Both the position numbers and the translations under genes were made by a program. A stretch of 64,000 bases of DNA from Eubacterium sp. UBA3782 (GTDB taxonomy: Bacteria; Bacillota; Clostridia; Lachnospirales; Lachnospiraceae): positions 1-64,000 of the forward strand of contig DFFG01000003.1 in the NCBI GenBank assembly GCA_002368795.1, given 5' to 3'. The notes beneath the pieces were generated by a model. That model saw only the letters and a program-made list of their open reading frames with translations. It was not told where the DNA came from and did not search any database. Below, in pieces: positions 890 through 37,800 of this stretch. The first letter of the stretch is position 1, and each line of letters begins with the position of its first letter.

Positions 890-2131
890 ATGGCAATAGC
901 AGAAGTAATCAAATTTGAAGGTGATCCGAATCAGCTGGTGTGGAAGCACCCAGCGGAGGATTTCAACACGACATCGCAGCTGATCGTCGATGAGACCCAT
1001 GAAGCACTTCTTGTGCTCAACGGCAATGCCGCGGATCTGTTCGGACCCGGCCGGCATACGCTGACGACGAACAATATCCCGATCCTGCGGAAGCTGCAGG
1101 AGATCCCCACCGGAGGGGCAACGCCGTTTCCGTGCAAGGTCTTCTTTATCAATAAGGTCCATCAGATGGATATGCTCTGGGGTACCCAGGGCGCGATCCC
1201 GCTGGAGGATCCGCTGTACGATATCTTCATGCATGTCATGCTTCACGGAAGCATTTCGGTGTCGGTGGATGATTCCAGGAAATTCCTCCTGAAGCTTGTC
1301 GGCTTCCGTGACCGGTTTGATGCCAATACACTGGTATCCAAATTCCGCGGGATCATTTCCAGCCAGGTAAAGGATGCTATCTCCAAGATCATGATCCGGG
1401 GCCAGCTCAGCTACTTTATGATCAGCTCAGAGCTTCTGGAGATCAGCGGTGTCGTCAAGGAAAGACTGGATGAAGTCTTTGACGAGTATGGCGTCCACAT
1501 CGAGTTCTTTAACATTGAAGCCATCGAGGTTCCGGACAAGGATTATGCCGAGATCTCGCAGGCCAAAAAGCTTCGTAGCAGCCGCCTGATCCAGGGCTAC
1601 ACCTGGCAGGAGGAGCGGCAGATGATGATCGCCGAAAAGTTTGCCGGCAATCAGGGCGCCATGGGAACCATCGGCGGGATGATGGGCGGCCTGGCCGGCG
1701 GCATTGCCATGGGCAGCACGATCGCAGAGGTGGCAAAGAATGCCCTGTCTGCAGACCGGATCCCCACACAGGCGCCACCAAAGAATGTGGCCGGAGCAGC
1801 TCCGGTCATGGGAGCAAATGCTCCCGGAGCGGCTGCAGGGCAGACGGTCGACGTATCCGCATTGCTGCGTCAGGGCGCAGGCGCTGCCCCTGCCCGGCCG
1901 GAAGTCCGGGAGGAGAGGATCAGTCCGGAGCAGATGCCGGAAAGGCAGCAGATGGAGGGTTACGGCAGAGAAGGAAAATTCTGTCCGGAATGCGGAAGTC
2001 CGGTTGCAGCCGGAGCAAAGTTCTGCTCTGAGTGCGGACACAAGATGGAAAGCAATGTCTGTCCGGGATGCGGCAGTCCCATCACGCCGGGCGCTAAATT
2101 CTGTTCCGAGTGCGGGACCCGTCTCATATAA
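890..2131 (+). CDS. SPFH/band-7-like protein of the YdjI type (COG4260, virion-core-protein-like) with a Gly/Met-rich linker and a C-terminal double zinc ribbon (three CPxCG..FCSECG modules)
   Basis: The ATG at 890 is preceded by GGGGGA. The N-terminus MAIAEVIKFEGDPNQLVWKHP...LVLNGNAADLFGPGRHTL has the YdjI-like shape. The C-terminus carries CPECGSPVAAGAKFCSECG, CPGCGSPITPGAKFCSECG. The upstream GTG at 812 is an alternative start. Confidence 0.6.
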   Translation: MAIAEVIKFEGDPNQLVWKHPAEDFNTTSQLIVDETHEALLVLNGNAADLFGPGRHTLTTNNIPILRKLQEIPTGGATPFPCKVFFINKVHQMDMLWGTQGAIPLEDPLYDIFMHVMLHGSISVSVDDSRKFLLKLVGFRDRFDANTLVSKFRGIISSQVKDAISKIMIRGQLSYFMISSELLEISGVVKERLDEVFDEYGVHIEFFNIEAIEVPDKDYAEISQAKKLRSSRLIQGYTWQEERQMMIAEKFAGNQGAMGTIGGMMGGLAGGIAMGSTIAEVAKNALSADRIPTQAPPKNVAGAAPVMGANAPGAAAGQTVDVSALLRQGAGAAPARPEVREERISPEQMPERQQMEGYGREGKFCPECGSPVAAGAKFCSECGHKMESNVCPGCGSPITPGAKFCSECGTRLI

Positions 2132-2284
2132 CTCACTCGGGGTGGCCCCGCCTCTATAGGCGGCAAGAACGCCAAGGCGTTCCTGAAGGATTTTTGAAAC
2201 ATGGAAAGACGGGCACAGCGGCCTGTCCGATAAGAGCAGCGGCCTGTTTCTGCTGCAGTAAAAGGAAAAGGAGAACGTAAAGGC

Positions 2285-2983
2285 ATGGCAAGAGTTACAA
2301 AAAAACGGACCGCCGGTATGATCGGCCTCATCTATCTGATTGCATTTGCAGTTTTCATTATGCTCGTTTTCTTTATCTTTAAAGACAGGAGCGGCGTCTT
2401 CTGGATGAGCTTTATCTTTGCGGTGATCGCCTTTGCCGTAAAGCTTGCCAGCACCTTCCTGGCGTTCCAGGCATTTGAAGTGGAAGCCGTCTTCTTTGGC
2501 ATTCCGCTGGCCTCGCTTTCTCTTTACTACTTTTTTGCCCAGGTGTTCTGTGCAGTCGTTTTCATGATCTTCCACAGCGCACCGGCCAAGCTGGCTTTCG
2601 CCCTTCAGGTGATCATTCTGGCAGTCTTTGCCATCGTCGCGATCATCACGCTGTTCACCAGAGATGCCATCCAGGATGTGGATGACAATATCAAGATCAG
2701 CACTACCGCCATCAAGACGATGCAGGCGGATGTGGAAAGCCTTCGCGATGCAGCAGGCGATCCGGAGCTGAAGAACCGTCTGCGCAAGCTGGCTGAGACG
2801 ATTAAGTATTCCGATCCGATGTCCAACGATGCGGTGCTGGATATTGAGGATCAGATCATGCAGTCGCTCTCTGAGCTGCGGATCTACTGTGAAGACAACG
2901 ACAAGGCAAATGCCATGCAGGCATGCAGAAACACGGAGATGCTGTTCCTCCAGAGAAACCGGACGCTCCGGGCAACAAAGTAA
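2285..2983 (+). CDS. Integral membrane protein (about 4 TM helices) with a C-terminal cytoplasmic coiled-coil segment. Hypothetical.
   Basis: Good RBS AAAGGAGAACG before the ATG. The N-terminal 120 aa are hydrophobic, followed by a charged helical tail. Confidence 0.6.
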   Translation: MARVTKKRTAGMIGLIYLIAFAVFIMLVFFIFKDRSGVFWMSFIFAVIAFAVKLASTFLAFQAFEVEAVFFGIPLASLSLYYFFAQVFCAVVFMIFHSAPAKLAFALQVIILAVFAIVAIITLFTRDAIQDVDDNIKISTTAIKTMQADVESLRDAAGDPELKNRLRKLAETIKYSDPMSNDAVLDIEDQIMQSLSELRIYCEDNDKANAMQACRNTEMLFLQRNRTLRATK

Positions 2984-2992
2984 GGACAGACT

Positions 2993-4996
2993 ATGGCTTC
3001 CAGTTACAAAAGTGTAAAATGTGACAGCTGCGGCGGTTCCCTGGTTTATTCCAGAGAAAAGAAGGTATGGATCTGCCGGTACTGCGGCAATGAGATCCGC
3101 CGGGAAGAGGAATACGACGGGCTGTATACGATCAAAAATGTCGTCCGGCAGACGATCACCGATACGGCGTACGGCAGGCTGGAGCAGGCCAGGCGCAACC
3201 TGGCCGAGTGCGAGAAGATCGATACCCGCTATGTGGGTACGCTGATCGCCAGGCTGTGCGTTCAGATGTTTACCCTGATCACGCCGGGCGAGTGTCCCCA
3301 GAGCGGGCAAAAGAGCCTGATCCGGCAGATCCGGCAGAACTATGAGGACCTGCAGAAGCTGGACCAGGGCATATCTGCAGAGGAAGAGGCGCTCTACGAA
3401 TCCTTCGACGGGAACGCAGATGTCTTTGCCGTTCTGGTCGTTGTGTTTGATTCCCTGGGCGACCGGGTGCATAAGGAATTTGCCGAAAACCTTCTGGATG
3501 CGGCAAAAGTATATTCAGAGCGGATCAATGACAGCCTCCTTCGGTATGCGATGCGCAGCAAAAAGCTGGAGCTGGCTGACCGGATCCTGGATAATGTGGA
3601 CAACATCCCCTGCAGGGCTGCTTTGCTGACCGTCCTTGCGGAATATCCGGATGGCGATAGCAAGCGGCAGCATGTGCGGGATCTGTTTCCGCGTGCCGGC
3701 CTTTCAAGGGATGAGAGAAAGGCAGTCGAGGGTTATCTGAAGACCACAAAGGACTGTCCGGAGACAAAGACAGCGGTCTATGCCGCCGGCGTCGAAGCTG
3801 GTGTACCGGCATCGATCACCTGTGTGGAGGAATATCTGCTGAAGGATCTCGGAGGCAGGATCGAAGACGTCCGAAAAGTGATCCGGCTGATCGCACAGGC
3901 AAAGCCGAACGATGCGGAGCTCTACCGGCTGATCACAGCGATCTTTACCGGACACAGCTTTCCGGTGGCCCAGGCGGAGCTTTCCGAGCTGGCATCCTCC
4001 GGATTGTATATCGTGGTCAACCCATCGGATATCCTCCGGATGCTGTCCAGACAGGAGCTTTCCCTTGATGAACGGCTGGCGCTGGTCGATCTGGCCCATC
4101 AGTTTAACAGCGACGCCCGCACAAATGATACGATCCTGGCAGAATATCTGAACCGGAACCGGGATGCGGCCGATATCCGTATTCCGGTGATCGAAAAGCT
4201 GCTCACCTATGTCCGGACGATCGCAACCGCGACGCTCAGCGAGTATGTGATACGGGTAACGACCGATGGGAAGCGAAAGCCCGAGGTCCTATCCAGGATC
4301 CTCGAGCTTGACCTGAACATGAGCTTTTTCCGGAGTCTGATGCAGCAGTACATGGCCGGATCCCAGGATCCGCCGGATGTAAAGGCAGAGATAACGGCGC
4401 TGCTTGGGCGCGCCGGGCTGACGGTCGATGCCGGCACGCTGCTGGATATGGCCTGCAGCTGCACACAGGAAAATGCCCTGGAGACGATCAACCTCGTCAA
4501 CCGGATGAAGCAGAGCGGCGTGCATATGCGGAGCGACGCACTGAGCATTTACTTGGAGAAGGCGGCGGGACGGCAGTATTATGCCGGGCTGATCTCCGCG
4601 CTGTATACCGAAGGATGCATCCTGTCCGGAAGGGCTGTGGCAAACTATGTGCTCTATGCCCGGATGAATGAGGAGGTAAAGCTCCGCAATCTGGAGACCT
4701 TTCTTGCAGCCTGCAGTGAGCCGGCAGGCAGCATAGCGGTTACCGTCAGTCATCTGGGACACCGGGTCGACTGCAGTCTGCTGCAGGCATACGTGCTGAC
4801 GGCAGGAGAAAGCCTCCCGACGGCCGGTCGGATCACCGACATGCTGAAGAGTACCGGTGCAAAGCTGAATGCAAACATCCAGGTGGACCAGGCAAATATG
4901 AAATTCAAAAAATACATCATGGACAACCGTCCGCAGCTTGGCGGCCAGACAGAGGCGCTGTGTGCGGACAACAAGGTGTTTTCCATGTTTTTCTAA
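2993..4996 (+). CDS. Hypothetical 667-aa protein with an N-terminal C4 zinc ribbon (CDSCGGS...CRYCGNE) and a large all-helical domain
   Basis: Uninterrupted ORF starting 9 nt after the previous stop. The cysteine pairs sit at the extreme N-terminus. Confidence 0.6.
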   Translation: MASSYKSVKCDSCGGSLVYSREKKVWICRYCGNEIRREEEYDGLYTIKNVVRQTITDTAYGRLEQARRNLAECEKIDTRYVGTLIARLCVQMFTLITPGECPQSGQKSLIRQIRQNYEDLQKLDQGISAEEEALYESFDGNADVFAVLVVVFDSLGDRVHKEFAENLLDAAKVYSERINDSLLRYAMRSKKLELADRILDNVDNIPCRAALLTVLAEYPDGDSKRQHVRDLFPRAGLSRDERKAVEGYLKTTKDCPETKTAVYAAGVEAGVPASITCVEEYLLKDLGGRIEDVRKVIRLIAQAKPNDAELYRLITAIFTGHSFPVAQAELSELASSGLYIVVNPSDILRMLSRQELSLDERLALVDLAHQFNSDARTNDTILAEYLNRNRDAADIRIPVIEKLLTYVRTIATATLSEYVIRVTTDGKRKPEVLSRILELDLNMSFFRSLMQQYMAGSQDPPDVKAEITALLGRAGLTVDAGTLLDMACSCTQENALETINLVNRMKQSGVHMRSDALSIYLEKAAGRQYYAGLISALYTEGCILSGRAVANYVLYARMNEEVKLRNLETFLAACSEPAGSIAVTVSHLGHRVDCSLLQAYVLTAGESLPTAGRITDMLKSTGAKLNANIQVDQANMKFKKYIMDNRPQLGGQTEALCADNKVFSMFF

Positions 4997-5033
4997 GCTT
5001 CGGGCGAATATTGCAGAAAAGGAGGGATAAAGC

Positions 5034-6800
5034 GTGACGCAGGAAGAATACGAGGCTGAGCAGGCCGAAATAGAATCGTTGATTAATCAGATCAATGCGC
5101 TGATCGCCGAAAACAACCGGCTGATCGATGAGATCAACAATGCACTGCATAATATTCAGATCCTGAAGAACAACGTCGGCGTGCTGGGCAGAAACATCGA
5201 GCCCAAGATGCGCAGCGTTTCCGGAGAAGTGGAGCTTGACGCAGACAAGACAAAAGCTGTCAGCAATGCGCTCCAGGAGATGACCGAACAGTACTTTACG
5301 TTCAAGACCCTGTCCTCGGCATCCAAGAATCTGTCCCAGTATACGGACGAGTATTATGCGAAATACCAGCATTACAACAAGCTCCGCCGGATCGCTCTTG
5401 GCTATGTGATCGGGCTGGACAACAATTTTGTTTCTGATGAGACCCTGCGCAAGGAGGTCGAGAAGATCTACCTCCAGAACACGGAATACTGGCTCGCCTA
5501 TGCGGCATCGGCCGTCATGCTCTGGGCCAGCGATGAAAAAGAGGCGGCAAAGCGTGCGCTGGACAAAGCCATTTTCATGGACGAGACCAAGGCCAGCCTG
5601 TATTTCATGCTGATCAACCTCCGGTTTGGCAGGGACAAGGTTGCCAGAGAGTGGTTCCTCTACTACATGGAGCGTGTGGATTCCGGCCATCTTCCCGAGG
5701 ACTGGAAGTATCTTCTGCAGGCCTATCTGACCGGAACCTTCGGGACAGATCCCGAATTCCAGAAGCTGGTCGCGACACGGATGAATGCCATGCTGGCCAA
5801 GGAGGAGGCCACAACGGTCGACTTCGGGAAAAAGTTCAGCAGCCGGGCGTACCAGTACATCGATACGCATCTGCACACCACCAGGGAGGCCTTCCCCTAC
5901 CTGAAACAGACCTGTGCGGATCATGGCCAGATGATGGAGATGCTCTCCGACGCAGAGAAGAATGCGGTCATTGCCGCCTGGTACAATGCGCTGGCCGAGG
6001 AAAAGGACGAGCAGTCCGGCTTCATCGCCCAGAGGATCGAGAATGTTCTTTATGCGCTGGTCAGCAGCTATGATGACGGAGAGCTGGAGATCGTCAAAAA
6101 GATCCGCTACAACGACTGTATCCTGACGGCAAAGGGCGATGTGGCCAGAGCCCAGGAAAAATACGAGCTGGAGTTCCCGCCAAAGAAGAGGACGACCTTT
6201 GGGGATCTGCTGGCAGACTGGGCTTTCCAGGAGGACAGCAACCTGACGCCGCTGCTGATCCGCCGGTTCGCCATCGATCTGATGAAGGACTGGATCTTCA
6301 AGGGCTACGAGCAGTTCAACCGTGACAATCTCCAGAAGGAGAAGAAGGAATACACCTTTGATATCGACGGCTGCGAGGTGACCACATCAGAGACCGGATA
6401 TGAACGGGCAAAGACCAGGGTCGACCAGTTTTTTGAGAAGAACAAATGGAAGAGCATAACCGCCGACAAATTCGCGCTGATCTTTATGCTGATGAGTGTA
6501 TGCGGTGTGCTTCTTTTGGGCATCATGGCAGTTACGGCTGTCGGCGCCCATGGATTTGGCACAGGAGCGAGGATCGCTCTGGTTACCGGTATCCTGCTGG
6601 TCCTTGCGGGTGTATTCCTGCTATGGCGGCGTATCGTAGAAGTGCTGGCGGCACTCCAGGAAAAGAAGCGGCTCGCTCTGCAGAAGCTGGCCCACTCCCT
6701 GGAGGAGCTGGGCAGATGGCGCGAGCTGTTCCATAAAGAAGCAGACAGGATCAGTGATCTGGAGAGGGCCGTGAGCGAATTCGGTCCATCCGCGCGGTAA
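5034..6800 (+). CDS. Paralog A of a triplicated family. It has an N-terminal coiled coil, a conserved core (YWLAYAASAVMLW...LINLRFGRDKVAREWFLYY), a C-terminal two-helix membrane hairpin and a short coiled tail.
   Basis: GTG start at 5034 with GGAGGG 7 nt upstream. The protein aligns by eye to the products of 6816-8417 and 10693-12390 over about 120 aa. Confidence 0.65.
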   Translation: MTQEEYEAEQAEIESLINQINALIAENNRLIDEINNALHNIQILKNNVGVLGRNIEPKMRSVSGEVELDADKTKAVSNALQEMTEQYFTFKTLSSASKNLSQYTDEYYAKYQHYNKLRRIALGYVIGLDNNFVSDETLRKEVEKIYLQNTEYWLAYAASAVMLWASDEKEAAKRALDKAIFMDETKASLYFMLINLRFGRDKVAREWFLYYMERVDSGHLPEDWKYLLQAYLTGTFGTDPEFQKLVATRMNAMLAKEEATTVDFGKKFSSRAYQYIDTHLHTTREAFPYLKQTCADHGQMMEMLSDAEKNAVIAAWYNALAEEKDEQSGFIAQRIENVLYALVSSYDDGELEIVKKIRYNDCILTAKGDVARAQEKYELEFPPKKRTTFGDLLADWAFQEDSNLTPLLIRRFAIDLMKDWIFKGYEQFNRDNLQKEKKEYTFDIDGCEVTTSETGYERAKTRVDQFFEKNKWKSITADKFALIFMLMSVCGVLLLGIMAVTAVGAHGFGTGARIALVTGILLVLAGVFLLWRRIVEVLAALQEKKRLALQKLAHSLEELGRWRELFHKEADRISDLERAVSEFGPSAR

Positions 6801-6815
6801 AGGGGGGAAGAAAAG

Positions 6816-8417
6816 ATGTCAAATGTTTCCGGTGCAATACAGGAGCTGAACGAGACGATCAACTCCTTTGAATCAAAGGTCGACGTACATGTACAGAATA
6901 TTCACCAGTCCAGCGTAAACGTGGATGCTGCTGCAGACCGGATCTACCAGAAGATCGTGCAGTTCCGGCAGGATATGGAGCATGGCGAGCAGAAGCAGCT
7001 TGCCCATGAGAACATCATCCGTATCGACCAGATCATCAAGGAGCAGTTCAGCAATTACGAGACGATCCGCCGTACCGTCATGGGCGTTGTGAGGGACTTC
7101 GATATCAATCTTGTCCGCAACACGACGATCCAGGAGCTCTCTGAGGAGCTCTGGATCACCAGCTCCCGCTACTGGCTGTCCTATGCGCTGATCGCCATCA
7201 CCGCATGGGTAAACAATTACCCGGAGGTGGCAAGAAACGCGCTGGCTGAGAGCGGACGGAAGGATGCCGTCAAGACGACGCTGTTTTTCTGCCTTCTCAA
7301 TCTGCGCTTCAACCGGATCGATACGGCGAAAAGCTGGTTCTATGAGTACCTCAAGACCCTGGATCCGACGATGCTCCAGCAGGAGACGGCTGTCATGCTG
7401 CAGGCGTTTCTCGCAGGGATCTTCGGCAAGGACCAGGAGCTGCAGCATGCGGTGATCGATGTCATCGACCAGTGGATCTCCATCATCAATGAGAGCCAGG
7501 AGATCTGCGATGAGCTGGTCGGCTCCTACGAGAGCTATATCCGCAACATCAATCCCATGGTCGACTTCAATTACGAGGCGATCCTTACCTACTGCACCAA
7601 TGCGGAGGAGCTGAAGCGCTCCTTTACCGATGTGTCGAAATACGCCAGCATTCTGGATCTTTTGGATTCCCTGAATGTGCAGGAGGTCACCCAGAGCAAC
7701 GACAACTATGCCGAGCGTGTGGATGCCGTGCTGATGAACCTGATCTCCAACTATGATGCAGAGGAGCTGGATCTTCGGAACCAGCAGGAGTATTTCAACC
7801 TGATCGTCCGCAACGAGGGACAGGTCGACCGTGCCGAGGCCCAGTATGCGGAAGAGATGGCACTGCAGAATGAAAACTTCAACATCGGCAAGCAGATGAT
7901 CAAATGGGCGATCTATGATGACAACGACACAACAGATCCCCATGTGCGCAAGTTCGGCTTCCAGAACACCAAACAGTGGTTCAAGAGCGCGCTGGACCGG
8001 TTCAGCGTATCCCTGCAGCAGCAATTCCCCATCGAGTATAATCTGTCCATCGACACCTGGACCGGTACGAGCAGCGGGGATGACCAGGAAGAGCTGACCG
8101 AGAACATGCGCAGCTACTTTGAGACAAATAAGTTCCACAATATGTATGTCAACACCATCAACATCGCCGCGCTGATCGTACTGATCGCATCTCTGGGCCT
8201 TGCGTTTGTCACGCTGTATGCCCTGGTCGCTTCCGTCGCGGCGGCGGCCGTACTGATCTACCGGGTCATCAAGGCAAACAAGGAATATCCGGCAAGAGTC
8301 AATGCGGCTCTGGAGGCGTTAAACCAGACGCTGCTGGAGATCGCCGACTTCCGGGATTACTTCGCGCAGTGCAGCCTGCAGAAGGATGAGATCCTCTCCA
8401 CCGTGGAATTCATCTGA
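6816..8417 (+). CDS. Paralog B of the triplicated family (core YWLSYALIAITAW...LLNLRFNRIDTAKSWFYEY, C-terminal TM hairpin)
   Basis: RBS GGGGGGAAG before the ATG. It shares the motif order with paralogs A and C. Confidence 0.65.
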   Translation: MSNVSGAIQELNETINSFESKVDVHVQNIHQSSVNVDAAADRIYQKIVQFRQDMEHGEQKQLAHENIIRIDQIIKEQFSNYETIRRTVMGVVRDFDINLVRNTTIQELSEELWITSSRYWLSYALIAITAWVNNYPEVARNALAESGRKDAVKTTLFFCLLNLRFNRIDTAKSWFYEYLKTLDPTMLQQETAVMLQAFLAGIFGKDQELQHAVIDVIDQWISIINESQEICDELVGSYESYIRNINPMVDFNYEAILTYCTNAEELKRSFTDVSKYASILDLLDSLNVQEVTQSNDNYAERVDAVLMNLISNYDAEELDLRNQQEYFNLIVRNEGQVDRAEAQYAEEMALQNENFNIGKQMIKWAIYDDNDTTDPHVRKFGFQNTKQWFKSALDRFSVSLQQQFPIEYNLSIDTWTGTSSGDDQEELTENMRSYFETNKFHNMYVNTINIAALIVLIASLGLAFVTLYALVASVAAAAVLIYRVIKANKEYPARVNAALEALNQTLLEIADFRDYFAQCSLQKDEILSTVEFI

Positions 8418-8484
8418 CCGGAAAGACAAAGGGAAAATATACAAGTGACCGGCAACGGGACAGACAGTGCAGAAAGGATAGATT

Positions 8485-8694
8485 ATGGAAAACGAATTCG
8501 GATTCAATGCATATGAAGAGCAGGACGGACAGGACAATCAGATGTCGGATTTTGAGTCCCTGATGGCGGAGCGTATTCAGTCCAACTTCGCGGCAGAGAG
8601 CGGAAGCCTTTCGGCGACGGATGAGCGGCTGCAGGAAATGAACAAGCGGCTGCCGGACTGGAGCCTTGAGCCGCCCTACAGCTTCCTGAAATAA
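8485..8694 (+). CDS. Small acidic protein of 69 aa. Hypothetical.
   Basis: RBS AAAGGATAG before the ATG. It lies in an operon context between paralog B and the next gene. Confidence 0.45.
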   Translation: MENEFGFNAYEEQDGQDNQMSDFESLMAERIQSNFAAESGSLSATDERLQEMNKRLPDWSLEPPYSFLK

Positions 8695-8697
8695 ACA

Positions 8698-9180
8698 ATG
8701 ACAGCAAAGGCACCTTCAAATTATCAGGAATGGATGGCCATTATGGACGCCCTTGCGGAGGGCAGGTCCGGACCCGAAAGCCTTTCCCTGATGGAGGAGG
8801 GGACGCTGCCGGAGGGCGCGTATGTCACCGGCCGTTTTCAGCAGCGGGTCACCGATACGGTCAACCGGATGCTCCGGCGGAGCATCCGCCGTTTTGAGCA
8901 GCGCTTTTCGGAGGCCCTTTCCGAGCGGGGGACAGACACTGTGCAGCTTCTTCTTGCACGGCTGCATAAGGAGCTTGCCCTGTGCTTTTTCTTCCGAAGG
9001 ATGCCGTTTCTGGATGAATGCTTTCGAAATGAGCTGGAGACTGCCCTTTTGGGGGAGATCCGGAAATTCTGGAGGCATGAGATCCGGGAGATCCGGCGCC
9101 TTGCCGAGCTGCCAGGCCATGCAGAACTTGAGGAAGTCATGTATTCCATGAAGCGATTCGCAAAGGAATACGGAGAGTAG
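8698..9180 (+). CDS. Hypothetical 160-aa helical protein
   Basis: Starts 4 nt after the previous stop, suggesting translational coupling. Uninterrupted frame, same strand. Confidence 0.5.
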   Translation: MTAKAPSNYQEWMAIMDALAEGRSGPESLSLMEEGTLPEGAYVTGRFQQRVTDTVNRMLRRSIRRFEQRFSEALSERGTDTVQLLLARLHKELALCFFFRRMPFLDECFRNELETALLGEIRKFWRHEIREIRRLAELPGHAELEEVMYSMKRFAKEYGE

Positions 9181-9181
9181 G

Positions 9182-10696
9182 ATGGGAAATTACAGCACGA
9201 CCAAAACCGAAATTAAAAACTATATCTTTGCCAGGGTGCCCCTCATCATCATTCAGTCGGCCGAGCGGGCCAGAGTGGAGCGGATGATCGCTGAGACAGC
9301 CAGGGAGATGCGGATCGAGGTGACCTGCTACTCGGATACAAAGCAGATCTACCGCCCGGGCCAGGACACGATCCGGGATGTGGAGAGCGATCCGATCCCC
9401 TTTGCCATGGAGCTGCTTCGCCGCAAGAGGGGAACGACCTTTGTGCTGGCAGATGTGCGCAGGGTCAGTGAGGAGAACCTGTACAGTCGGGAGATCGTCA
9501 ATCTCCTGTATCTGGCCGCAGAGATGGGAGGCACAGTGATCCTGATCACGCCGGATCCTGTGTGGGCAAGGATCGCCCGGATGGGCATGCTGACCAGGCT
9601 CGATCTTCCCGATATGGATGAGCGGACCGCCGAGATCCGTGAATTCGTCCGGCGGTATGGTTCGCGGTATTCCATCGCCTGGGATGAGAACGATATCCAG
9701 CGCGCATCTGCGCTCCTGAGGGGATTTACAGAGATCCAGATCGACAACATCCTGTCTTCCGCGCTGGTGGAAAACGGCGCGCTGGACCGGCGGCATATCT
9801 ATGAGCTGACGAGCCAGAAAAGCCGGATGTACGAGGCAGCCGCAGGCGTCCAGGAGGTCAGGGTCAGCGGGGACCTGCGGATCTCAGGCCTGGACAACCT
9901 GAAGCAGTGGCTGGCAGAAAAGAAGAGGATCTTTTTTGCATCAGAGGAGGAGCTGGCCGCGCGCGGCCTGCAGACGCCAAAGGGGATCCTTCTGGCCGGC
10001 ATCCCGGGATGCGGAAAATCCTTCTCCGCCCGGATGGTTGCCAGAGAGTGGGAACTTCCGCTGTTCAAGTTCGATATCGGCAGCATCTACGACAAATGGG
10101 TCGGAGAGAGTGAGCACCGGATGGCGGATGCCCTGCAGTTTATCGACAATGTTGCGCCCTGCATCGTATGGATCGATGAGATCGAGAAGGCTCTTTCGGT
10201 CTCGGACAGCAGCAACGATACCGGGCAGCGGGTGCTGGGCCAGTTCCTGTTCTGGCTTCAGGAGTCATCAAGCCGCGTATTTCTCGTGGCAACGGCAAAT
10301 GACATCCGAAAGCTGCCGCCGGAGCTGTTTCGCAAGGGCAGGTTCTCGGAGATGTTCTTTGTCGATCTGCCGACAGCAGTCGAGCGGGCGGAGGCCATCA
10401 CCCAGTACATGGAACAGTGCCTGCACAGGACGCCCGACGCGGGCAGCCTGCAGGAGCTGGTTGGAAGAACAAAGGGATTTTCCTATGCGGATATTGAATA
10501 TATGGTAAAGGAGGCTGCCCAGAAGGCACTTCTTTACGGGGATGATGCGGTCAGCAGCGATATGCTTCTGGAACTGACAGAGAAGGTCATCCCGTTTGCA
10601 GATACCAATCCGGACGTGGTCTCCCAGCTGAGAAGCTGGGGAAATTCGCGGGCAGCCGCAGCGTCGCTTCCGGAGAAGGGAGGAAATGAGGCATGA
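9182..10696 (+). CDS. Classical-clade AAA+ ATPase. The N-terminal ~230 aa look like a degenerate ATPase-like domain. The C-terminal module has Walker A GIPGCGKS, Walker B IVWIDEIE and an SRH ([29 protein letters not shown]).
   Basis: Motifs read directly from the translation. The KWVGESE segment after Walker A resembles the Vps4/spastin/katanin-type KW(M/V)GE(S/G)E. The stop overlaps the next start (ATGA at 10693-10696). Confidence 0.75.
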
Positions 10697-12390
10697 GCGA
10701 TATAGGCAGCCTGAGGGCAGAGCTGGCCAGGCAGGAAAGGATCAATGCGGAGCTGCGCAGCGATCTGTGGGAGCTGGAGAGCGGCGTCAGCAGCGCACAC
10801 AGCCGGCTGAATGAATTCCAGAATAAGACGAACAACACGCTTTCCGGAAGCACACAGCGGATGATCAGCTCTCATAACCGCATCGTGGAGGCCTACGAGA
10901 TCCAGGGCGAGATCGACCATCTGTATGAGCGCTTCAAGCAGGTCGAGCTGGCCAACAAAAAGATCCGTGCCTGCAACAATAAAAAATATTACGAGTTTGC
11001 CAATTACCGTACCGTGCGTAAGCTGGTCCAGGGCATCATGGACAATATGGACATGAACATGGTCTCGGATGAGGTGATCTACAAGTCGGTGGAGAAACAG
11101 CATCTGCAGACCCCAGACTACTGGCTCACCTGTGTGCTGATCAGCATCATGGCCTGGAAAAATGACGACAGGGAGCTGGCAGAACGGGCCATGGCCCGGG
11201 CGATCTCGCTGGACAAGAAGGACAGCGCGATCTTCTACATGCTGTTCCACCTGCGTCTGGGCCGTGAGGAGACGGCGCTCAAATGGTTCTATCTCTATCA
11301 GGAGTGCGACCTGAAGGGCAGCGATGAGCAGACCTTCCTGCTGCTGTTTTCCCTCATGACCAAGACCCTGGATGATTTCGTGGATGATCATACCAAGTAT
11401 GAGATCTACAGCTTTATCAACAAGGTGATCGCCATGAGTGCAAGATCGGCCGGCTTCTCCGAGGAGGAGATCATCCGGCAGATCGAAAACTATCTGATCG
11501 CCATGAAAGACACCGACAACCTTCAGCTCAATCTGCTGAAGCGGTGCATGGACGATTACGGCGAGATCGCCGAGACAGTGATCCTCGCTGAAAACAACAA
11601 AACGATCCTGCAGTTCCTCATGGACGTACGCAGCGTCACGGAGATCGAGAGAAACGCCTACATCAGCAAATTCATCGACGATGTGATCGCAAAGCCGAAC
11701 CAGACCGAGCAGGAGGTCTACGATGAGATCGAATACAACGAGTGCATCATCCGGTGCGACGGCTATGTCGACCAGGCAAAGGAGATGTACCTGAAGGAGC
11801 AGGAGCGCCGGAAAAAGGAGCTGAATCTCATCAAGGAGATGGTCCGCAGGGTGTACGAGAGCTCAGGTGAAGAGGTCAACGGACAGGTCAAAAAGAACAT
11901 GTTCGTCCTGACCGGAGGCCTGCAGCGGAAGGCGATCAGCCGTTATGCCGAGGATTACCGGTCCAGGGTGACAGATGTGCATCCGGTCTCTCTGGGAGAG
12001 TACAGGACGACCGCCGATTTCCGGGATCAGGCCGGCGAGCAGCGGAAGATCGAAGAATACTACGAAACCCAAAAGGCAGAGCAGCTGGCCCAGGTCAAGG
12101 ACTGGCCCGCCTTCGTCGGCTTTGCTCTGGCCGTCGCCTGTGCAGCAGGCGCAGCCTTCGTAAGCCTTATGCTGCTGGCAGGCACCGCGCTTGGACTGAT
12201 CTTCGGCTTCGTACGGCTGCTGATGAACAGCCGGCAGAGAAAGCAGATCGCCAGTGACTGTGCAGTCAATATCAGCAGCAAGACGGATCTTCTCGACCGT
12301 CTCTTTGCAGAATACGAGCAGCTAAAGACTATCTTTTATGAATACGATGCCTACCAGGAGCAGATCGCTGCCGAACTCGGCAAGTTCTGA
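10693..12390 (+). CDS. Paralog C of the triplicated family (core YWLTCVLISIMAW...LFHLRLGREETALKWFYLY, C-terminal TM hairpin)
   Basis: Start overlaps the AAA+ gene stop. Same motif order as paralogs A and B. Confidence 0.65.
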   Translation: MSDIGSLRAELARQERINAELRSDLWELESGVSSAHSRLNEFQNKTNNTLSGSTQRMISSHNRIVEAYEIQGEIDHLYERFKQVELANKKIRACNNKKYYEFANYRTVRKLVQGIMDNMDMNMVSDEVIYKSVEKQHLQTPDYWLTCVLISIMAWKNDDRELAERAMARAISLDKKDSAIFYMLFHLRLGREETALKWFYLYQECDLKGSDEQTFLLLFSLMTKTLDDFVDDHTKYEIYSFINKVIAMSARSAGFSEEEIIRQIENYLIAMKDTDNLQLNLLKRCMDDYGEIAETVILAENNKTILQFLMDVRSVTEIERNAYISKFIDDVIAKPNQTEQEVYDEIEYNECIIRCDGYVDQAKEMYLKEQERRKKELNLIKEMVRRVYESSGEEVNGQVKKNMFVLTGGLQRKAISRYAEDYRSRVTDVHPVSLGEYRTTADFRDQAGEQRKIEEYYETQKAEQLAQVKDWPAFVGFALAVACAAGAAFVSLMLLAGTALGLIFGFVRLLMNSRQRKQIASDCAVNISSKTDLLDRLFAEYEQLKTIFYEYDAYQEQIAAELGKF

Positions 12391-32620: not shown

Positions 32621-32689
32621 TAAAAAATGACCAAAATTCATTTTTGAAAGGCACAAGATTTGTGAAAAGTGATAATTGACCATTGGTCA
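32621..32689. promoter_or_regulatory. Two operator-like palindromes upstream of the MMPL gene (AAAAATGA-N7-TCATTTTT at ~32623-32645 and TGACCA-T-TGGTCA at 32677-32689)
   Basis: Perfect dyad symmetry read directly from the sequence. Confidence 0.35.
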
Positions 32690-32721
32690 TTTTTGGACTA
32701 TTCTTTTCACAAAATTTCAAG

Positions 32722-34860
32722 ATGAATCAGGAGATGATAGATGTGATACAGACTGGGAAATGGATCGCACGGCACAGGATACTGATCCTGGCCATCGGGA
32801 TCTTTCTTCTGCTGCCTTCGGTCTGGGGTATGGTGCATATGCGGACAAATTACGATCTGCTGACCTACCTGCCGGAGAGTATTGAGACGGTGAGCGGGCA
32901 GCAGACGATCATTGACGAGTATGGCATGGGTGCCTTTTCCATGATCGTAGTGGAGAACAAGGCGCTGAAGGATGTGGCAGAACTGGAGGCGGACCTCGAG
33001 GATCTGGAGCACGTAAAGGATGTCCTTTGGTACGACGATGCTGCGGATATCAGCCTTCCGGTGGAGATGCTGCCTGCCGACCTGAGAGAAAAGTTTTTCC
33101 ACGGGGACGCAACGATGATGCTCGTTCTCCTGGATGAAGGCACCTCTTCGGACGCTTCGATGGACACGATTGCTGAAATACGCGGCATCTGCGATGAGGA
33201 CTGCTATGTGGGAGGCATGACGGCGATCCTGAGTGATCTGAGAGATCTGGCTGACCGGGAGGTACCGATCTACGTTACCATCGCCGTGCTTCTTTCGCTG
33301 GTCGTGATGCAGCTGCTCTGCGATTCCTTTCTGGTTCCGTTCCTGTTCCTCGCAGACATTGGGTTTGCGATCATCTATAACCTTGGGACGAACTTTATGT
33401 TTGGGGAGATCTCCTATATTACCAAGGCAGTAGCAGCTGTTCTGCAGCTGGGCGTCACGATGGATTATTCTATTTTCCTTCTGGGCAGCTACCGGGAATA
33501 CAAGGAAAAGTATCCGGAGGACAGTGAACGGGCGATGGGACATGCGATCGCCAGCACCTTCCGGTCTGTTGTGGGAAGTTCGGTCACAACGATCGCCGGG
33601 TTTATTGCACTTTGCTTTATGACATTTACCCTGGGGCTTGATATGGGCATCGTTATGGCAAAGGGCGTTATTTTCGGCGTGATCTGCTGTCTGACGATCC
33701 TTCCTGCACTGATCCTGCTGTTTGAGCGGGCCATTGAAAAAACGACACACCGGCCGCTTCTGGGGGATCTGCAGAAGCTGTCCGATTTTATTACTTCCCA
33801 CAGCCGGCTGTGGATCCTGCTTTTTGTCATCCTGTTTATCCCGGCCCTATGGGGACAGAATCATCTGGAGGTCTATTATGATATGGCGGCGTCTCTTCCG
33901 GAGTCGCTTCCGTCCAAGATCGCGATCCGGAAGACGGAGGAGGATTTTGGAAGCACGACCATCCATATGATCCTGATGGACGCAGACCTTCCGGCAAAGG
34001 ACAAGAAGGCAATGCTCGATGAGATCAGCCAGGTGGACGGCGTGACCTGGTGCCTGGGCCTGAACTCCCTGATAGGCACGAGCGTACCGGAGGAAGTCAT
34101 TCCGGAAAACGTAAAGAGCATGCTGCAGAGCGGCGAGCATGAGCTTGCCTTTATCAGCACAGGATATTATGACGGATCAGAAGAGGTAAATGCCCAGATC
34201 GATGAGATCAACGCGGTCATGGACCGCTATGACGATGGTGCAGTGCTGATCGGAGAGGCTCCTCTGACAAAGAATCTGATGGAGATCACCGATGTGGATT
34301 TTATGCACGTAAATACGATCTCCATCGGAATCATCTTTGTGATCATTCTTCTGCTGTTCCGGTCGATCAGCCTTCCGGTACTCCTGGAGACGGCAATTGA
34401 GTTTGCCATTATGGTCAATCTGGCGATTCCGTATTATATGGGGACCAAGCTTCCCTTCGTGGCCAGCATTATCCTGGGTACGGTACAGCTGGGATCGACT
34501 GTGGACTATGCGATCCTGATGACCACCCGGTACCAGAAGGAGAGACAGCGGGGACTGGACAAAGCAGATGCCGTACAGATCATGCATCGGACCTGCATGC
34601 CGTCGATCATCACCAGCGGCGCGGCCTTCTTTGCCGCAACCTTTGGCGTGGCAGTATATTCTGAGATCGATGTGATCCGCTCGATCTGTCTGCTCCTTGC
34701 CCGTGGAGCACTGATCAGTATGGTAGTCGTTATTCTTGTTCTGCCGGGTATGTTTTTGATCTTTGACTGGTTGATCTGCAGGACATCGGCAGACTTTTTG
34801 GGAAGGAAAAAGAAAAAAGACAGAGTGGAAATGATAGAAGAAAGAGGCGAAGCATCATGA
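32722..34860 (+). CDS. MMPL/RND-superfamily transporter (two 6-TM halves with ...DYSIFLL / ...DYAILM motifs)
   Basis: Start uncertain. The ORF-track Met at 32683 lacks an RBS, 32722 (MNQEM) and a GTG at 32743 after AGGAG are alternatives. The stop overlaps the next gene (ATGA). Confidence 0.7.
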   Translation: MNQEMIDVIQTGKWIARHRILILAIGIFLLLPSVWGMVHMRTNYDLLTYLPESIETVSGQQTIIDEYGMGAFSMIVVENKALKDVAELEADLEDLEHVKDVLWYDDAADISLPVEMLPADLREKFFHGDATMMLVLLDEGTSSDASMDTIAEIRGICDEDCYVGGMTAILSDLRDLADREVPIYVTIAVLLSLVVMQLLCDSFLVPFLFLADIGFAIIYNLGTNFMFGEISYITKAVAAVLQLGVTMDYSIFLLGSYREYKEKYPEDSERAMGHAIASTFRSVVGSSVTTIAGFIALCFMTFTLGLDMGIVMAKGVIFGVICCLTILPALILLFERAIEKTTHRPLLGDLQKLSDFITSHSRLWILLFVILFIPALWGQNHLEVYYDMAASLPESLPSKIAIRKTEEDFGSTTIHMILMDADLPAKDKKAMLDEISQVDGVTWCLGLNSLIGTSVPEEVIPENVKSMLQSGEHELAFISTGYYDGSEEVNAQIDEINAVMDRYDDGAVLIGEAPLTKNLMEITDVDFMHVNTISIGIIFVIILLLFRSISLPVLLETAIEFAIMVNLAIPYYMGTKLPFVASIILGTVQLGSTVDYAILMTTRYQKERQRGLDKADAVQIMHRTCMPSIITSGAAFFAATFGVAVYSEIDVIRSICLLLARGALISMVVVILVLPGMFLIFDWLICRTSADFLGRKKKKDRVEMIEERGEAS

Positions 34861-37800
34861 ATAAAAGCAACAGAAATTCCGGCATACAAAGCCATGCAAA
34901 TGCGGCACTGGCGGTCTCGATGGCTGCTTTTCTGGGACTGCTGCCGGCAGCTCCGGCAATGGCTGCTGAGACAAAGGAAGATGTGCACAAGGACGAGACG
35001 GTATATGTGGTTGCCGACCCGGCCGGGGAAGCCAGGGACATCATTGTTTCCGATCATCTGGTCAATGACGGGGGACTGAAGGAAATCAAAGATCAGTCCT
35101 CGCTCTCGGACATTGAGAACACAAAGGGAGATGAGACCTTCAGCGGTCCGGAAGCCTCCATGACCTGGTCGGCAGACGGGAAGGATATTTATTATGAAGG
35201 AACCTCAGACAACAGCCTGCCGGTGGGCGTAAGCCTGAAGTATTATCTGGACGGACAGGAGATCACGGCAGAAGAGCTGGCAGGAAAAAGCGGCAGACTG
35301 ACCATTGAGATCCACTACGCCAACAATACCGGGAAACAGATGAAGATCGGCAGCCGCACAGAGGATATGAAGAGTCTCTTTGTCATGATGACCGGGATGC
35401 TGCTTCCCGATGATGTTTTCTCCAATGTAACGGTCGATAACGGCAAGGTCATTGATGACGGCAGCCGTCAGATCGCTCTGGCCTTCGGAGTGCCGGGACT
35501 TCGGGAATCCCTGAACCTGGAGGAGACGGCCGGAAAACTTGCAAAGGAAACAGAGAAAGAAAGCAAAGACGGCAGCATGAAAGAGATCAGCCGCCTTCTG
35601 TCCGGAGAAGGACTCACGGATACGGTGAAGATTACTGCGGATGTGAAGGATTTTTCCATGGGACAGACCATAACGGTGGCGGTATCCGACCTGTTCAATG
35701 ATCTGGATCTTTCCGACGAAGACAGCCTGGAGGACCTGTCCAAAGGCATAGACGAGCTTGAGACGGCGACCCGCCAGCTGGTAGATGGAAGCGGAGAGCT
35801 TCTGGAGGGTACCAGGACACTGAAAGACAAATATGGTGAGCTCGACAGCGGGATCGGGACGCTGAAAAACGGGATCGATACGGCTGCCGATGGCGCCGGG
35901 GCTGCCGCAGATGGAGCGGAGCGTCTGAGCAAGGGAGCAGAAGAGCTGAATACCGGTGCCAAAACAGCCCGGAAAGGCGCGAAGTCCCTGGCCGGAGGTG
36001 TAAAGGATTATACCGATGGTACACAGAAGATCCAGGCAGGTGCGGAGAAGGTGAAGGATGGAACAGCCTCTGCAGCAGAAGGGGCAGAGACACTGGCCGA
36101 AGGGATCCATGCCTACACAGGAGGCGTGGCAGAACTTGCCGGGGGAACCGGAACCCTGAAGGAAGGTGCCGATAATGCCGGGAAGGGTGCCGCAGATCTG
36201 TCGTCCGGAATCACGGCTTACACGGATGGTGTATCGTCGCTATCTGCAGGCGCCAAATCCCTGAGCACGGGCGCCGCAGGCCTGTCGGAGGGCATCGAAA
36301 ACTATTCCGCCGGTGTGGACAGTCTGGCGGACGGCATACATACCTATGTGGACGGGATCAGCCAGCTGACCGGCGCAGATACCGGAGAAAAGCTGCAGAC
36401 GCTGGTCGAGGGACTGGATGGCCTGGCTGCTGGCATGGAAGCGCTGGACAAGGAGGTATCCTCCGACGAAGGAAGTCTGTCTGCCATCGAGGATAGCGCT
36501 TCAAAGCTTGCAGAGGCTGCCGCATCACTGGATGCCGGAGCCGAAGCATTGGTCGGTACCATTGAAAGCACGGAAACCGGGACCGGCAGCCTGGAGACGC
36601 TGAAGACGTCCATAGGTCAGGCAAAAGGCGCCGTACAGGGACTGCAGAAAAGTCTGGCAGGACAGCAGGCGGCGATGGAAGCCCAGATCCGCACAGCAGC
36701 AGCCCAGGCGGCTACTTCAGCAGCTCAGAATGCCGTATCCGGTGCATATAGCACTGCCGCAGGCAGCGCAGCTTCTGCTGCCGCCACTTCAGCCGTATCT
36801 GAGAAATATGCAGCAGCACAAAGTGCAGTCAGCCAGCAGATCAGCAGCCTTCAGGCGCAGAGAGATGCGCTGGCAGCAGATAACACCGATGGCAAAAACG
36901 ACAGTGCCATCGCTGCCCTTGACAGTGCGGTAAGCGGTCTGAACAGCCTGCAGGGCAGTTTTGGAGATCCGAGCGTAAATGTTTCCGTGAGTGTGGATGC
37001 ATCTGCCGTCAATGTAGGATCTGAGGCATTTTCCGGGCTGAGCCTGGCAGACACCTTCAGCAGCCTGAATGCCAGCCTGTCCGGTATCAGCGGCAGCCTG
37101 GAGACGATCGAAGGACAGATCAAGGCTCCGGATCAGACCGGCAGTGCAAAAGCGGATCCAGGCGAAGCCCTGAAACAGCTAAAGGATGGCACCTCTGCGC
37201 TGAGCAGTCAGATGGCAGCTCTTGCCCAGGGTATTTCCGGATACAGAAGCGGGCTCTCCCAGAACACAGGAGAACTGAGCAAAGGAGCCAGGACACTGAG
37301 CACATCAGCAGAAGAAGGCATCGGCAGTCTGACAGAAGGAATGGAATCTCTCAGCCAGGGAGGTACAGCCCTGAAGGATGGTGCTGACAAGCTTGTTGGT
37401 GCGGGTGCGGACCTCAAAGCCGGCACAGCAGCGGTGACCGGCGGTGTATCCACGCTCCAGGAAGGAGCAGCAGCTCTGGAAGCCAATTCTCCGGCCCTGA
37501 AGGAAGGCGCAAAAACGCTTGCCGGCGGACTCCTGGATCTGTCAGCGGGCATCGGTCAGCTGAAGGACGGAGCAGATAAGCTGGATGGCAATTCTGAAAA
37601 ACTGAACGCCGGAGCGGATGCGCTGAAGACCGGAGCCTCCGAGCTGAAAACAGGGGCATCGGATCTGTATAAAGGATGCCAGACGCTGAACGAAAACGCA
37701 CCTGCCCTGACCTCGGGCGCAAATGAGCTTGCCGGTGGACTGCTGGATCTGTCCGAAGGGACAGCCACACTGAAAAAGGGTGCGGATGCGCTTTCTTCCG

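Follow-up and report, generated by a model that had tools for sequence, protein, structure and literature searches.

Three paralogous membrane proteins

We analysed a 64,000-nucleotide stretch of Eubacterium sp. UBA3782 (assembly GCA_002368795.1, contig DFFG01000003.1, positions 1 to 64,000 of the forward strand; hereafter the window), near the start of which three related genes, here called A, B and C, lie within a larger gene cassette. The three proteins are ancient, diverged and probably non-redundant versions of a single membrane-anchored subunit, for which there is only one gene outside Clostridia. The three genes are the following:

5034..6800, forward strand: paralog A, 588 amino acids (aa), with a GTG start preceded by a good ribosome-binding site, AAAGGAGGG
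6816..8417, forward strand: paralog B, 533 aa, the most conserved copy (mean ortholog identity 63%)
10693..12390, forward strand: paralog C, 565 aa

The public gene calls match all three open reading frames (ORFs), and the protein lengths given in the first-pass annotation of this DNA are correct. In pairwise BLASTP comparisons the proteins aligned over 300-450 residues at 22-28% identity (A/B, E 3e-44 with 27% identity over 400 aa; A/C, E 9e-34; B/C, E 3e-30), a similarity far above chance that makes them true paralogs. Every motif that had been listed as common to them falls on conserved columns of the three-way alignment, namely Y114, R118 and G123 in a first block, Y152-W153-L154, W164, L196-R197, R200, W207-F208 and Y211 in the core, and I363, G368, V370, A373 and Y377 in a later block. 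Among 63 orthologs, 21 for each paralog, positions A96, R118, W153, L154, W164, R197, W207, E350 and G368 were invariant. The likeness of the three proteins is therefore one of homology, and a compositional artefact, a concern raised together with the original claim, is excluded.

The other concern, that a well-characterised family might already account for these proteins, found no support, as no characterised Pfam family matches A, B or C, and searches of Pfam, NCBIfam, PADLOC and PDB sequence profiles returned nothing meaningful. The sole recurrent weak Pfam match among the 63 orthologs, DUF2207_C, lies over the transmembrane (TM) region and was dismissed as compositional. The closest named relatives of A come from a Ruminococcus sp. 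metagenome-assembled genome (MAG; 64% identity) and from Roseburia hominis (60%), and all source-named homologs of A, B and C are annotated as "hypothetical protein", with a precomputed Pfam domain in none. The family is common in Clostridia of the human, ruminant and termite gut and in oral streptococci, and its triplicated type amounts to 782 clusters at 50% identity.

A, B and C share one layout, in which an N-terminal helical hairpin is followed by a TPR-like core, an all-alpha body, an uncharged membrane hairpin and a tail. For paralog A we used an AlphaFold2 (AF2) model built from 31 sequences (mean predicted confidence, pLDDT, 83.3), our models being of single chains. The elements could be placed as follows:

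5040..5414, forward strand: paralog A, N-terminal antiparallel helical hairpin (residues 3-127; AF2 helices 3-59 and 66-127)
5439..5729, forward strand: paralog A, TPR-like core (residues 136-232), six short helices bearing the YWL..AW..LNLRFGR..WF.Y motif
6468..6635, forward strand: paralog A, membrane hairpin (residues 479-534), from hydropathy and AF2 helices 479-504 and 510 onward
8133-8261, forward strand: paralog B, membrane hairpin (residues 440-482)
12103-12213, forward strand: paralog C, membrane hairpin (residues 471-507)

The model of A also contains a small beta-hairpin at residues 440-451 besides the all-alpha body, and its second membrane helix extends into the cytoplasm as a long helix that ends near residue 570. 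In the ortholog groups of A, B and C the hydrophobic element is a single uncharged stretch with a median of 40-43 residues (40 in A orthologs), carries a central proline or glycine in the orthologs inspected, and is followed by a C-terminal tail of 51-57 aa. Such a hairpin topology puts both termini of each protein in the cytoplasm and leaves almost nothing outside the cell.

The hairpin anchor with a cytoplasmic bulk proposed in the first-pass annotation is thus borne out by hydropathy, by the AF2 model of A and by the uncharged stretches of the orthologs. The stretch of about 100 aa that it called a coiled coil is indeed helical, but folds as an antiparallel helical hairpin in the model of A. 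Its likening of the proteins to reticulon/caveolin-style membrane shapers fared less well: no such Pfam match was listed for the 63 members at E <= 1, and each protein has one hairpin where a reticulon domain has two. These families offer at most an analogy for the hairpin, and nothing specific points to the coat or filament that had also been suggested.

The cassette and its surroundings

A, B and C are not contiguous, since a 69-aa ORF, a 160-aa ORF and an AAA+ gene (9182-10696) separate B from C. The start codon of C overlaps the stop codon of the AAA+ gene by 4 nt (ATGA, 10693-10696), which suggests that the two are translationally coupled; 38 related loci share this junction, and the remaining loci have other ones. 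The further members of the cassette are these:

890..2131, forward strand: flotillin-like SPFH (Band_7_1) protein that contains a low-complexity linker and ends in two zinc ribbons, the first gene of the cassette
2285..2983, forward strand: 232-aa membrane protein with about four TM segments in residues 7-130 (hydropathy) and a helical, cytoplasmic C-terminal half
2993..4996, forward strand: 667-aa protein with an N-terminal CxxC...CxxC zinc ribbon, a short-helix alpha-solenoid and a small alpha/beta C-terminal domain
8485..8694, forward strand: s69, a 69-aa acidic peptide with the near-invariant C-terminus ERLKEMNKKLPSWSLEPPYSFLK
8698..9180, forward strand: p160, a 160-aa helical protein of conserved position (148 aa in the public call, which has its start at 8734)
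9182..10696, forward strand: tandem AAA+ ATPase of 504 aa, a degenerate N-terminal AAA-like domain (residues 1-232) followed by an active classical-clade AAA domain

The resulting order (SPFH/zinc ribbon, 4-TM protein, zinc-ribbon alpha-solenoid, A, B, s69, p160, tandem AAA+, C) recurs in 59 genomes and in 80 mostly gut-type metagenome loci. It is kept in Roseburia hominis, Hungatella hathewayi and Pseudoflavonifractor phocaeensis, and the cassette is also found in MAGs labelled mostly Lachnospiraceae, Oscillospiraceae and Christensenellaceae; the genes that flank it vary between loci. When we considered the related loci with at least 6.5 kb of sequence downstream of A, B, s69, the AAA+ gene and C were each present once in all of them (100/100), and a second full-length copy of any paralog was found at no locus. 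Moreover, pairwise identities rise and fall with those of A both for B (r = 0.94) and for C (r = 0.98), with values of 0.91-0.98 for the set of B, C, AAA+, solenoid and SPFH proteins. This strict one-each co-occurrence, together with the co-tracking identities, is what one would expect if the proteins were non-redundant parts of a single machine. The three diverged copies in one operon noted at first reading are real, and on the strength of the same counts and correlations they are probably non-redundant subunits of one assembly.

The AAA+ protein has the hallmarks of a classical-clade AAA+ unfoldase: a Walker A motif (GxPGCGKS), a Walker B motif (DEIE), a pore loop (KWVGESE) and the arginine fingers of the second region of homology (SRH). 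It matches Pfam AAA (6.9e-29) and AAA_lid_3, its best PDB relatives are VAT and Cdc48 D2 domains (1e-44), and residues G273-S280, D332/E333, K305/W306/G308 and R384/R387 are invariant among its orthologs. The invariance of the Walker motifs, of the KW.G pore loop and of the SRH arginines marks it as a substrate-threading unfoldase. In an hhalign comparison, its N-domain aligned with its own C-domain in the region of sensor-1, SRH and lid (E 9.7e-5), which identifies the former as a degenerate AAA domain ahead of the active one. No MIT domain, the hallmark of Vps4 and CdvC, was matched in the N-terminal 232 residues, and this N-domain had neither a PDB sequence match nor a relative outside the cassette among the fetched loci.

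The closing residues of s69, ...LPSWSLEPPYSFLK, are near-invariant and the motif LP.W.LEPP is conserved across phyla, with L49, E51, K54, L56, P57, W59, L61, E62 and P63 invariant in 21 aligned orthologs. At its other end, the segment DFE.MMEQRI resembles the repeated acidic motifs of toxin leaders encoded in related cassettes. The adjacent p160 belongs to no known family, having no match in Pfam or in PDB, and PDB sequence-profile searches were likewise empty for the solenoid protein. The 232-aa membrane protein has no match in Pfam or NCBIfam, and its gene always occupies the second position of the cassette.

The position of the SPFH gene is conserved in related loci as well. Its ORF opens at 812, the likely start being the ATG at 890 (public call, 413 aa), and the protein matches Band_7_1 (7.9e-36), Zn_Ribbon_1 (4.3e-15) and DZR (1.9e-12) in Pfam. 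Just upstream, at 258-815, lies a gene for a 185-aa zinc-ribbon protein, which overlaps the upstream extension of the SPFH ORF and is not conserved in related cassettes. Zinc-ribbon proteins, some with a weak Lectin_C match, recur near triple- and single-paralog modules (L001, 17387-18526; L150, 16294 onward).

Three long antisense ORFs, at 1427-3472, 4917-5924 and 6873-8138 on the reverse strand (681, 335 and 421 aa), are most likely shadow ORFs, and most likely a product of a GC-rich, purine-skewed coding strand; we treat them as such, and the public gene calls contain genes of the forward strand only. In one Oscillospiraceae locus (L024, 15719-17068, reverse strand) a 449-aa ORF stands between the AAA+ gene and C, and is probably an insertion sequence that interrupts the cassette.

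Downstream of the cassette, the genes sampled between 12505 and 64000 are ordinary chromosomal ones (MFS and MatE transporters, UvrD helicase, a DinB-type polymerase, L,D-transpeptidase, H+-pyrophosphatase and Lon), so that the cassette does not lie in an obvious defence island or prophage here. Two ORFs of this region, at 34857-38126 (forward strand, 1089 aa) and 50862-53297 (forward strand, 811 aa), had no Pfam match at E <= 1e-5, and the former directly follows an MMPL-family transporter gene (32683-34860) with a 4-nt overlap. Megablast searches against phages and plasmids gave no matches, a scan of 2.9 million viral contigs revealed no relatives, and we found no description of the cassette or of the A/B/C family in the literature.

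Long variants and single-paralog modules

Slightly more than half of the cassettes (51/101) carry an additional module between the solenoid gene and A, consisting of genes for a HerA-like ATPase, a toxin and a small protein. Examples, all outside the window, are found at L024 (4595-9967), L051 (6132-9934), L017, L019, L055 and about 45 more loci, of which L051 belongs to Hungatella hathewayi WAL-18680, the one long-variant locus from a named isolate in the fetched set; when the 64-kb window was searched by tblastn with the HerA-like, toxin and F2 proteins, none of them had a match. The ATPase is about 900 aa long and belongs to the HerA clade, with matches to Pfam DUF87/HerA_C, to the PADLOC models HerA and mad8 and to HerA in PDB, and has a 400-aa N-domain without known family. 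Its divergence tracks that of A almost as tightly as the AAA+ protein does (r = 0.92 and 0.95, respectively); it is an old component that the short variants have lost.

The gene after the HerA-like ATPase encodes a protein with a disordered N-terminal region containing 25-43% aspartate and glutamate, in which a D-[VI]-x-x-[LM]-M-D-[DE]-like motif is repeated (25 occurrences observed against 2.3 expected). This acidic leader precedes unrelated, swappable C-termini, of which we distinguished six types among 66 proteins: 25 HExxH, 19 C39-like (peptidase), 14 Tox-PL1, five RelA/SpoT-like, one Endonuclea_NS_2 and one of no known type; a seventh singleton in the clustering is a neighbouring ORF and not a toxin type. 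The matches to the Tox-PL1 glutamine deamidase (2.8e-11) and to Endonuclea_NS_2 (9e-25) both exceed the Pfam cut-offs. The N-termini that we inspected are acidic and have no evident signal sequence.

Downstream of the toxin gene lies a small gene whose type follows that of the toxin, encoding 75 aa after Tox-PL1, 98 aa after the HExxH zincin and 160 aa after the C39-like type, and an HD fusion of 380 aa after the RelA/SpoT-like type. We take these as putative immunity genes. A toxin with its matching small gene is the signature of polymorphic toxin-immunity systems (PMC3482391), and the long variants display both of its elements, a constant N-terminus with swappable C-termini and a co-varying downstream gene. 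A link from the F2 family to YezG immunity proteins held in 1 of 12 members and was rejected, and the PDB sequence profile of this family gave no match.

Beyond Clostridia, a tblastn search with B recovered relatives of full length, 23-24% identical to it (E 7e-26 to 3e-35), from plasmids of Komagataeibacter and Comamonas, in Fusobacterium vincentii (in a record filed as a 2.1-Mb plasmid) and in the Streptococcus satellite phage Javan368. They belong to modules with a single paralog, located as follows:

L146, 9674-14257: single-paralog module of the Streptococcus satellite phage Javan368
L147, 1106-5629: single-paralog module
L148, 8471-13006: single-paralog module
L149, 8950-13423: single-paralog module
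L150-L154: further single-paralog modules

Each such module comprises a protein that we call X160, one A/B/C-type protein, a peptide ending in PxW..P, a p160 homolog and a tandem AAA+ protein. These modules, with their core of A/B/C-type protein, peptide, p160 and tandem AAA+ protein, occur in four phyla, in plasmids, a satellite phage and chromosomes. Small ORFs in the Fusobacterium, Streptococcus, Comamonas and Komagataeibacter modules end in P-x-W-[DNS]-[LI]-x-P-[PA], as s69 does, and the profiles of p160 and of the tandem AAA+ protein find their homologs there with E values of 1e-13 to 6e-8 and of 1e-143 to 1e-157, respectively. All nine single-paralog loci that we examined encode X160 (156-168 aa, motif KCYLGxPYEVH; no match in Pfam or PADLOC), whereas neither the window nor any of the 145 triple-paralog loci does. 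No SPFH protein, 4-TM protein or solenoid was identified in the single-paralog modules. Further variants in Firmicutes come with a DUF87 ATPase as well as with zinc-ribbon and large variable proteins.

The single-copy type is large, with at least 1,908 clusters at 90% identity. In BLASTP comparisons with these single-copy homologs B scored best, reaching 7e-49 where A reached 7e-35 and C 9e-28, and it also occupies the ancestral position, in which paralog, peptide, p160 and AAA+ gene follow one another. Based on these two findings, A and C are derived duplicates specific to the Clostridial cassette.

Possible function and comparison with known systems

The function of the A/B/C cassette would have to be read from its context alone. 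Considering the above results, we propose, with a probability of roughly 0.4, that A, B and C may assemble into a hetero-oligomeric platform in the membrane, as part of a previously undescribed system that deploys effectors and is powered by the AAA+ protein. Each paralog would sit in the cytoplasmic membrane through its C-terminal hairpin and turn its helical hairpin, TPR-like domain and alpha body towards the cytoplasm, and the three together would build the platform, possibly a conduit. This platform would work with the tandem AAA+ unfoldase, s69 and p160, and the SPFH/zinc-ribbon scaffold, the 4-TM protein and the zinc-ribbon solenoid would complete the cassette. The TPR-like domains may serve as docking sites for the conserved peptide and for the motifs of the acidic leaders, the AAA+ ring, helped by HerA where present, may unfold and thread the cargo, and the hairpin oligomer may either pass it across the membrane or release it there. 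Besides the generic SPFH, AAA+ and HerA domains, none of the components of the cassette matches a known system.

We lean towards export because the toxins, which belong to interbacterial types, are accompanied by matching downstream genes and begin with no evident signal sequence. In its fullest form, which we consider possible but doubtful, this proposal would make the cassette a new Sec-independent protein-export system of Gram-positive gut Clostridia, with a conduit made of a hairpin hetero-oligomer, an AAA+ protein that threads toxins by their acidic leaders, a HerA-type pump in the long variants, an SPFH cage and an alpha-solenoid that organise the site, and the one-paralog, five-gene module as the ancestral minimal form.

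Several observations weigh against effector deployment. No component of the cassette is homologous to a known secretion-system part, and no protein of it has an extracellular domain. The window cassette, like 49 of 101 others, is a short variant with neither HerA nor toxin, so that a role of A, B and C in toxin handling is guilt by association; the cargo of the window cassette, if there is any, would be encoded elsewhere. The plasmid and satellite-phage modules and the likeness of the HerA-like protein to defence HerAs are no less compatible with an intracellular anti-phage system than with export, and the docking of the peptide by the TPR-like domains, the hetero-oligomer and the channel are all predicted features.

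The occurrence of minimal modules on plasmids and a satellite phage, and the resemblance of the HerA-like protein to defence HerAs, indeed make defence against phages or other mobile elements by abortive infection a close rival, if itself a rather uncertain one. The AAA+ and HerA-like proteins would then sense infection or be triggered by it, A, B and C would either permeabilise the cell's own membrane or release and activate the linked toxins within the cell, and the downstream genes would be antitoxins. The setting of the single-paralog modules speaks for this, beside insertion sequences and toxin-antitoxin genes on the Komagataeibacter and Comamonas plasmids and at the accessory end of Javan368, as do the patchy distribution over four phyla with variable accessory genes, an effector polymorphism typical of conflict systems and the lack of any extracellular part. 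In PADLOC 2.0 the HerA-like ATPase fits the HerA and mad8 models and the AAA domain those of IetA, which likewise speaks for defence, but these are generic domain matches (AAA of IetA/TRIP13, and HerA/mad8), and A/B/C, p160, X160 and s69 match no model, save for the coiled coil of A, which matches the tail of ZorA, and a marginal match of B to LeoB (E 0.025). The empty scan of viral contigs argues against defence, and so does the location of the window cassette, of the Ruminococcus SR1/5 module and of other loci among housekeeping genes; long acidic leaders on typical interbacterial toxin domains would also be unusual for defence effectors.

A role in membrane remodelling, repair or coating appears unlikely. 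Here A, B and C would polymerise like PspA/ESCRT-III, the SPFH and zinc-ribbon proteins would recruit them as YdjI does PspA, and the AAA+ protein would recycle them like Vps4. The set of SPFH, zinc-ribbon and membrane proteins does parallel Bacillus subtilis ydjGHI-pspA (PMC11237479; PMC8581546), bacterial PspA/Snf7 genes are reported beside proteins of the "inactive AAA + classical AAA" architecture that the window AAA+ protein shares, and Vps4-like ATPases beside TPR+TM proteins (PMC11237479). Published PspA contexts parallel the SPFH, zinc-ribbon and tandem-AAA themes too (PMC10936438), the N-terminal hairpin of A is of ESCRT-III size, and an alpha-solenoid partner is present. Nevertheless, no PspA_IM30 or Snf7 match was listed for A, B, C or the 63 orthologs in a Pfam scan at E <= 1, and the structural match to CHMP4B concerns a generic hairpin, with a Z score no better than that of unrelated coiled coils. 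The alpha1-alpha5 fold of that family (hairpin plus packed alpha3-alpha5) is absent, and we do not count A, B and C among its members. Remodelling would further leave the co-diverging HerA and toxin module and the presence of modules on plasmids and a satellite phage unexplained, and the SPFH, 4-TM and solenoid proteins on which the parallel draws are those not identified in the single-paralog modules.

An operon that holds three paralogs, all of them with long helices and a hydrophobic hairpin of helices, also brings to mind the tripartite alpha-helical pore-forming toxins of the ClyA/AhlABC/SmhABC type, in which case A, B and C would together perforate a target membrane. Foldseek placed AhlB, SmhB and MakA among its top hits (probability up to 0.8), but these matches are non-significant (E 0.06-0.3, TM-score, the fold-similarity measure, <= 0.25) and no Pfam match supports them. 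A, B and C are moreover about 200 aa longer than ClyA-type proteins, contain a TPR-like domain, carry their hairpin at the C-terminus and have no noted signal peptide, their homologs occur as single copies, and their genes are embedded among those of cytoplasmic ATPases, all of which renders a pore-forming toxin very improbable.

Whether it deploys effectors or defends the cell, the cassette suggests either a new toxin-delivery route to competitors in Gram-positive gut bacteria or a new multi-gene immune system, either of which would interest microbiome ecologists widely. With its strict three-paralog stoichiometry the cassette is a natural example of how subunits specialise once they have been duplicated, and the P-x-W-[DNS]-L-x-P-P ending of the peptide and the acidic leader motifs provide testable handles.

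Among known systems, type VII secretion (ESX/T7SSb) recalls the long variants in its Sec-independent polymorphic toxins with cognate immunity, including Endonuclea_NS_2, in its presence in Firmicutes and in its FtsK/HerA-superfamily ATPase; the ESX AAA+ ATPase EccA also carries a TPR domain. However, the Pfam and NCBIfam matches listed for the cassette proteins include no WXG/LXG, EssB/EssC/EsaA or Ecc, the HerA-like protein is recognised as HerA rather than as a three-domain EssC, and the toxins have a long leader that is acidic and disordered. In HflK/C-FtsH and other SPFH-AAA pairings, an SPFH scaffold and a classical AAA+ unfoldase meet at the membrane. The cassette ATPase differs in having neither a protease domain nor a TM segment, and the SPFH protein of the cassette lacks a TM helix and carries zinc ribbons at its C-terminus. 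Payloads of Photorhabdus virulence cassettes and other extracellular contractile injection systems (PVC/eCIS) have disordered N-terminal leaders. These systems also link a Cdc48-like tandem AAA+ protein to polymorphic toxins, as described in PMC3482391, but the cassette has no phage-tail, sheath or baseplate genes and its partners are membrane-anchored.

HerA defence systems (Sir2-HerA, DUF4297-HerA and mad8 of MADS) share with the cassette a HerA-clade ATPase, a variable toxic effector and relatives on mobile elements. The HerA-like protein of the cassette is instead about 900 aa long and optional, and stands within a membrane-associated cassette of 9-12 genes that is absent from PADLOC. The gene contexts in which an "inactive AAA + classical AAA" protein lies beside PspA/Snf7, or a Vps4-like ATPase beside a TPR+6TM protein (PMC11237479), resemble the cassette in their degenerate N-terminal AAA domain and in their membrane-anchored helical or TPR partner, and a membrane-proximal complex has been inferred there as it is here. 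The partner in the cassette nevertheless differs, with its hairpin, TPR-like domain, alpha body and two-helix anchor, and the peptide, p160 and X160 are not reported in those contexts. Finally, B. subtilis ydjGHI-pspA likewise combines an SPFH protein (Band_7_1, with zinc ribbons at the C-terminus) with a zinc-ribbon protein and a membrane protein, and these are encoded upstream of membrane-associated proteins with coiled coils. The cassette has no PspA, TPM or NTF2-like domain and its partners are unrelated in sequence, and it possesses in addition the AAA+ ATPase and, in its relatives, the HerA-like ATPase and the toxins.

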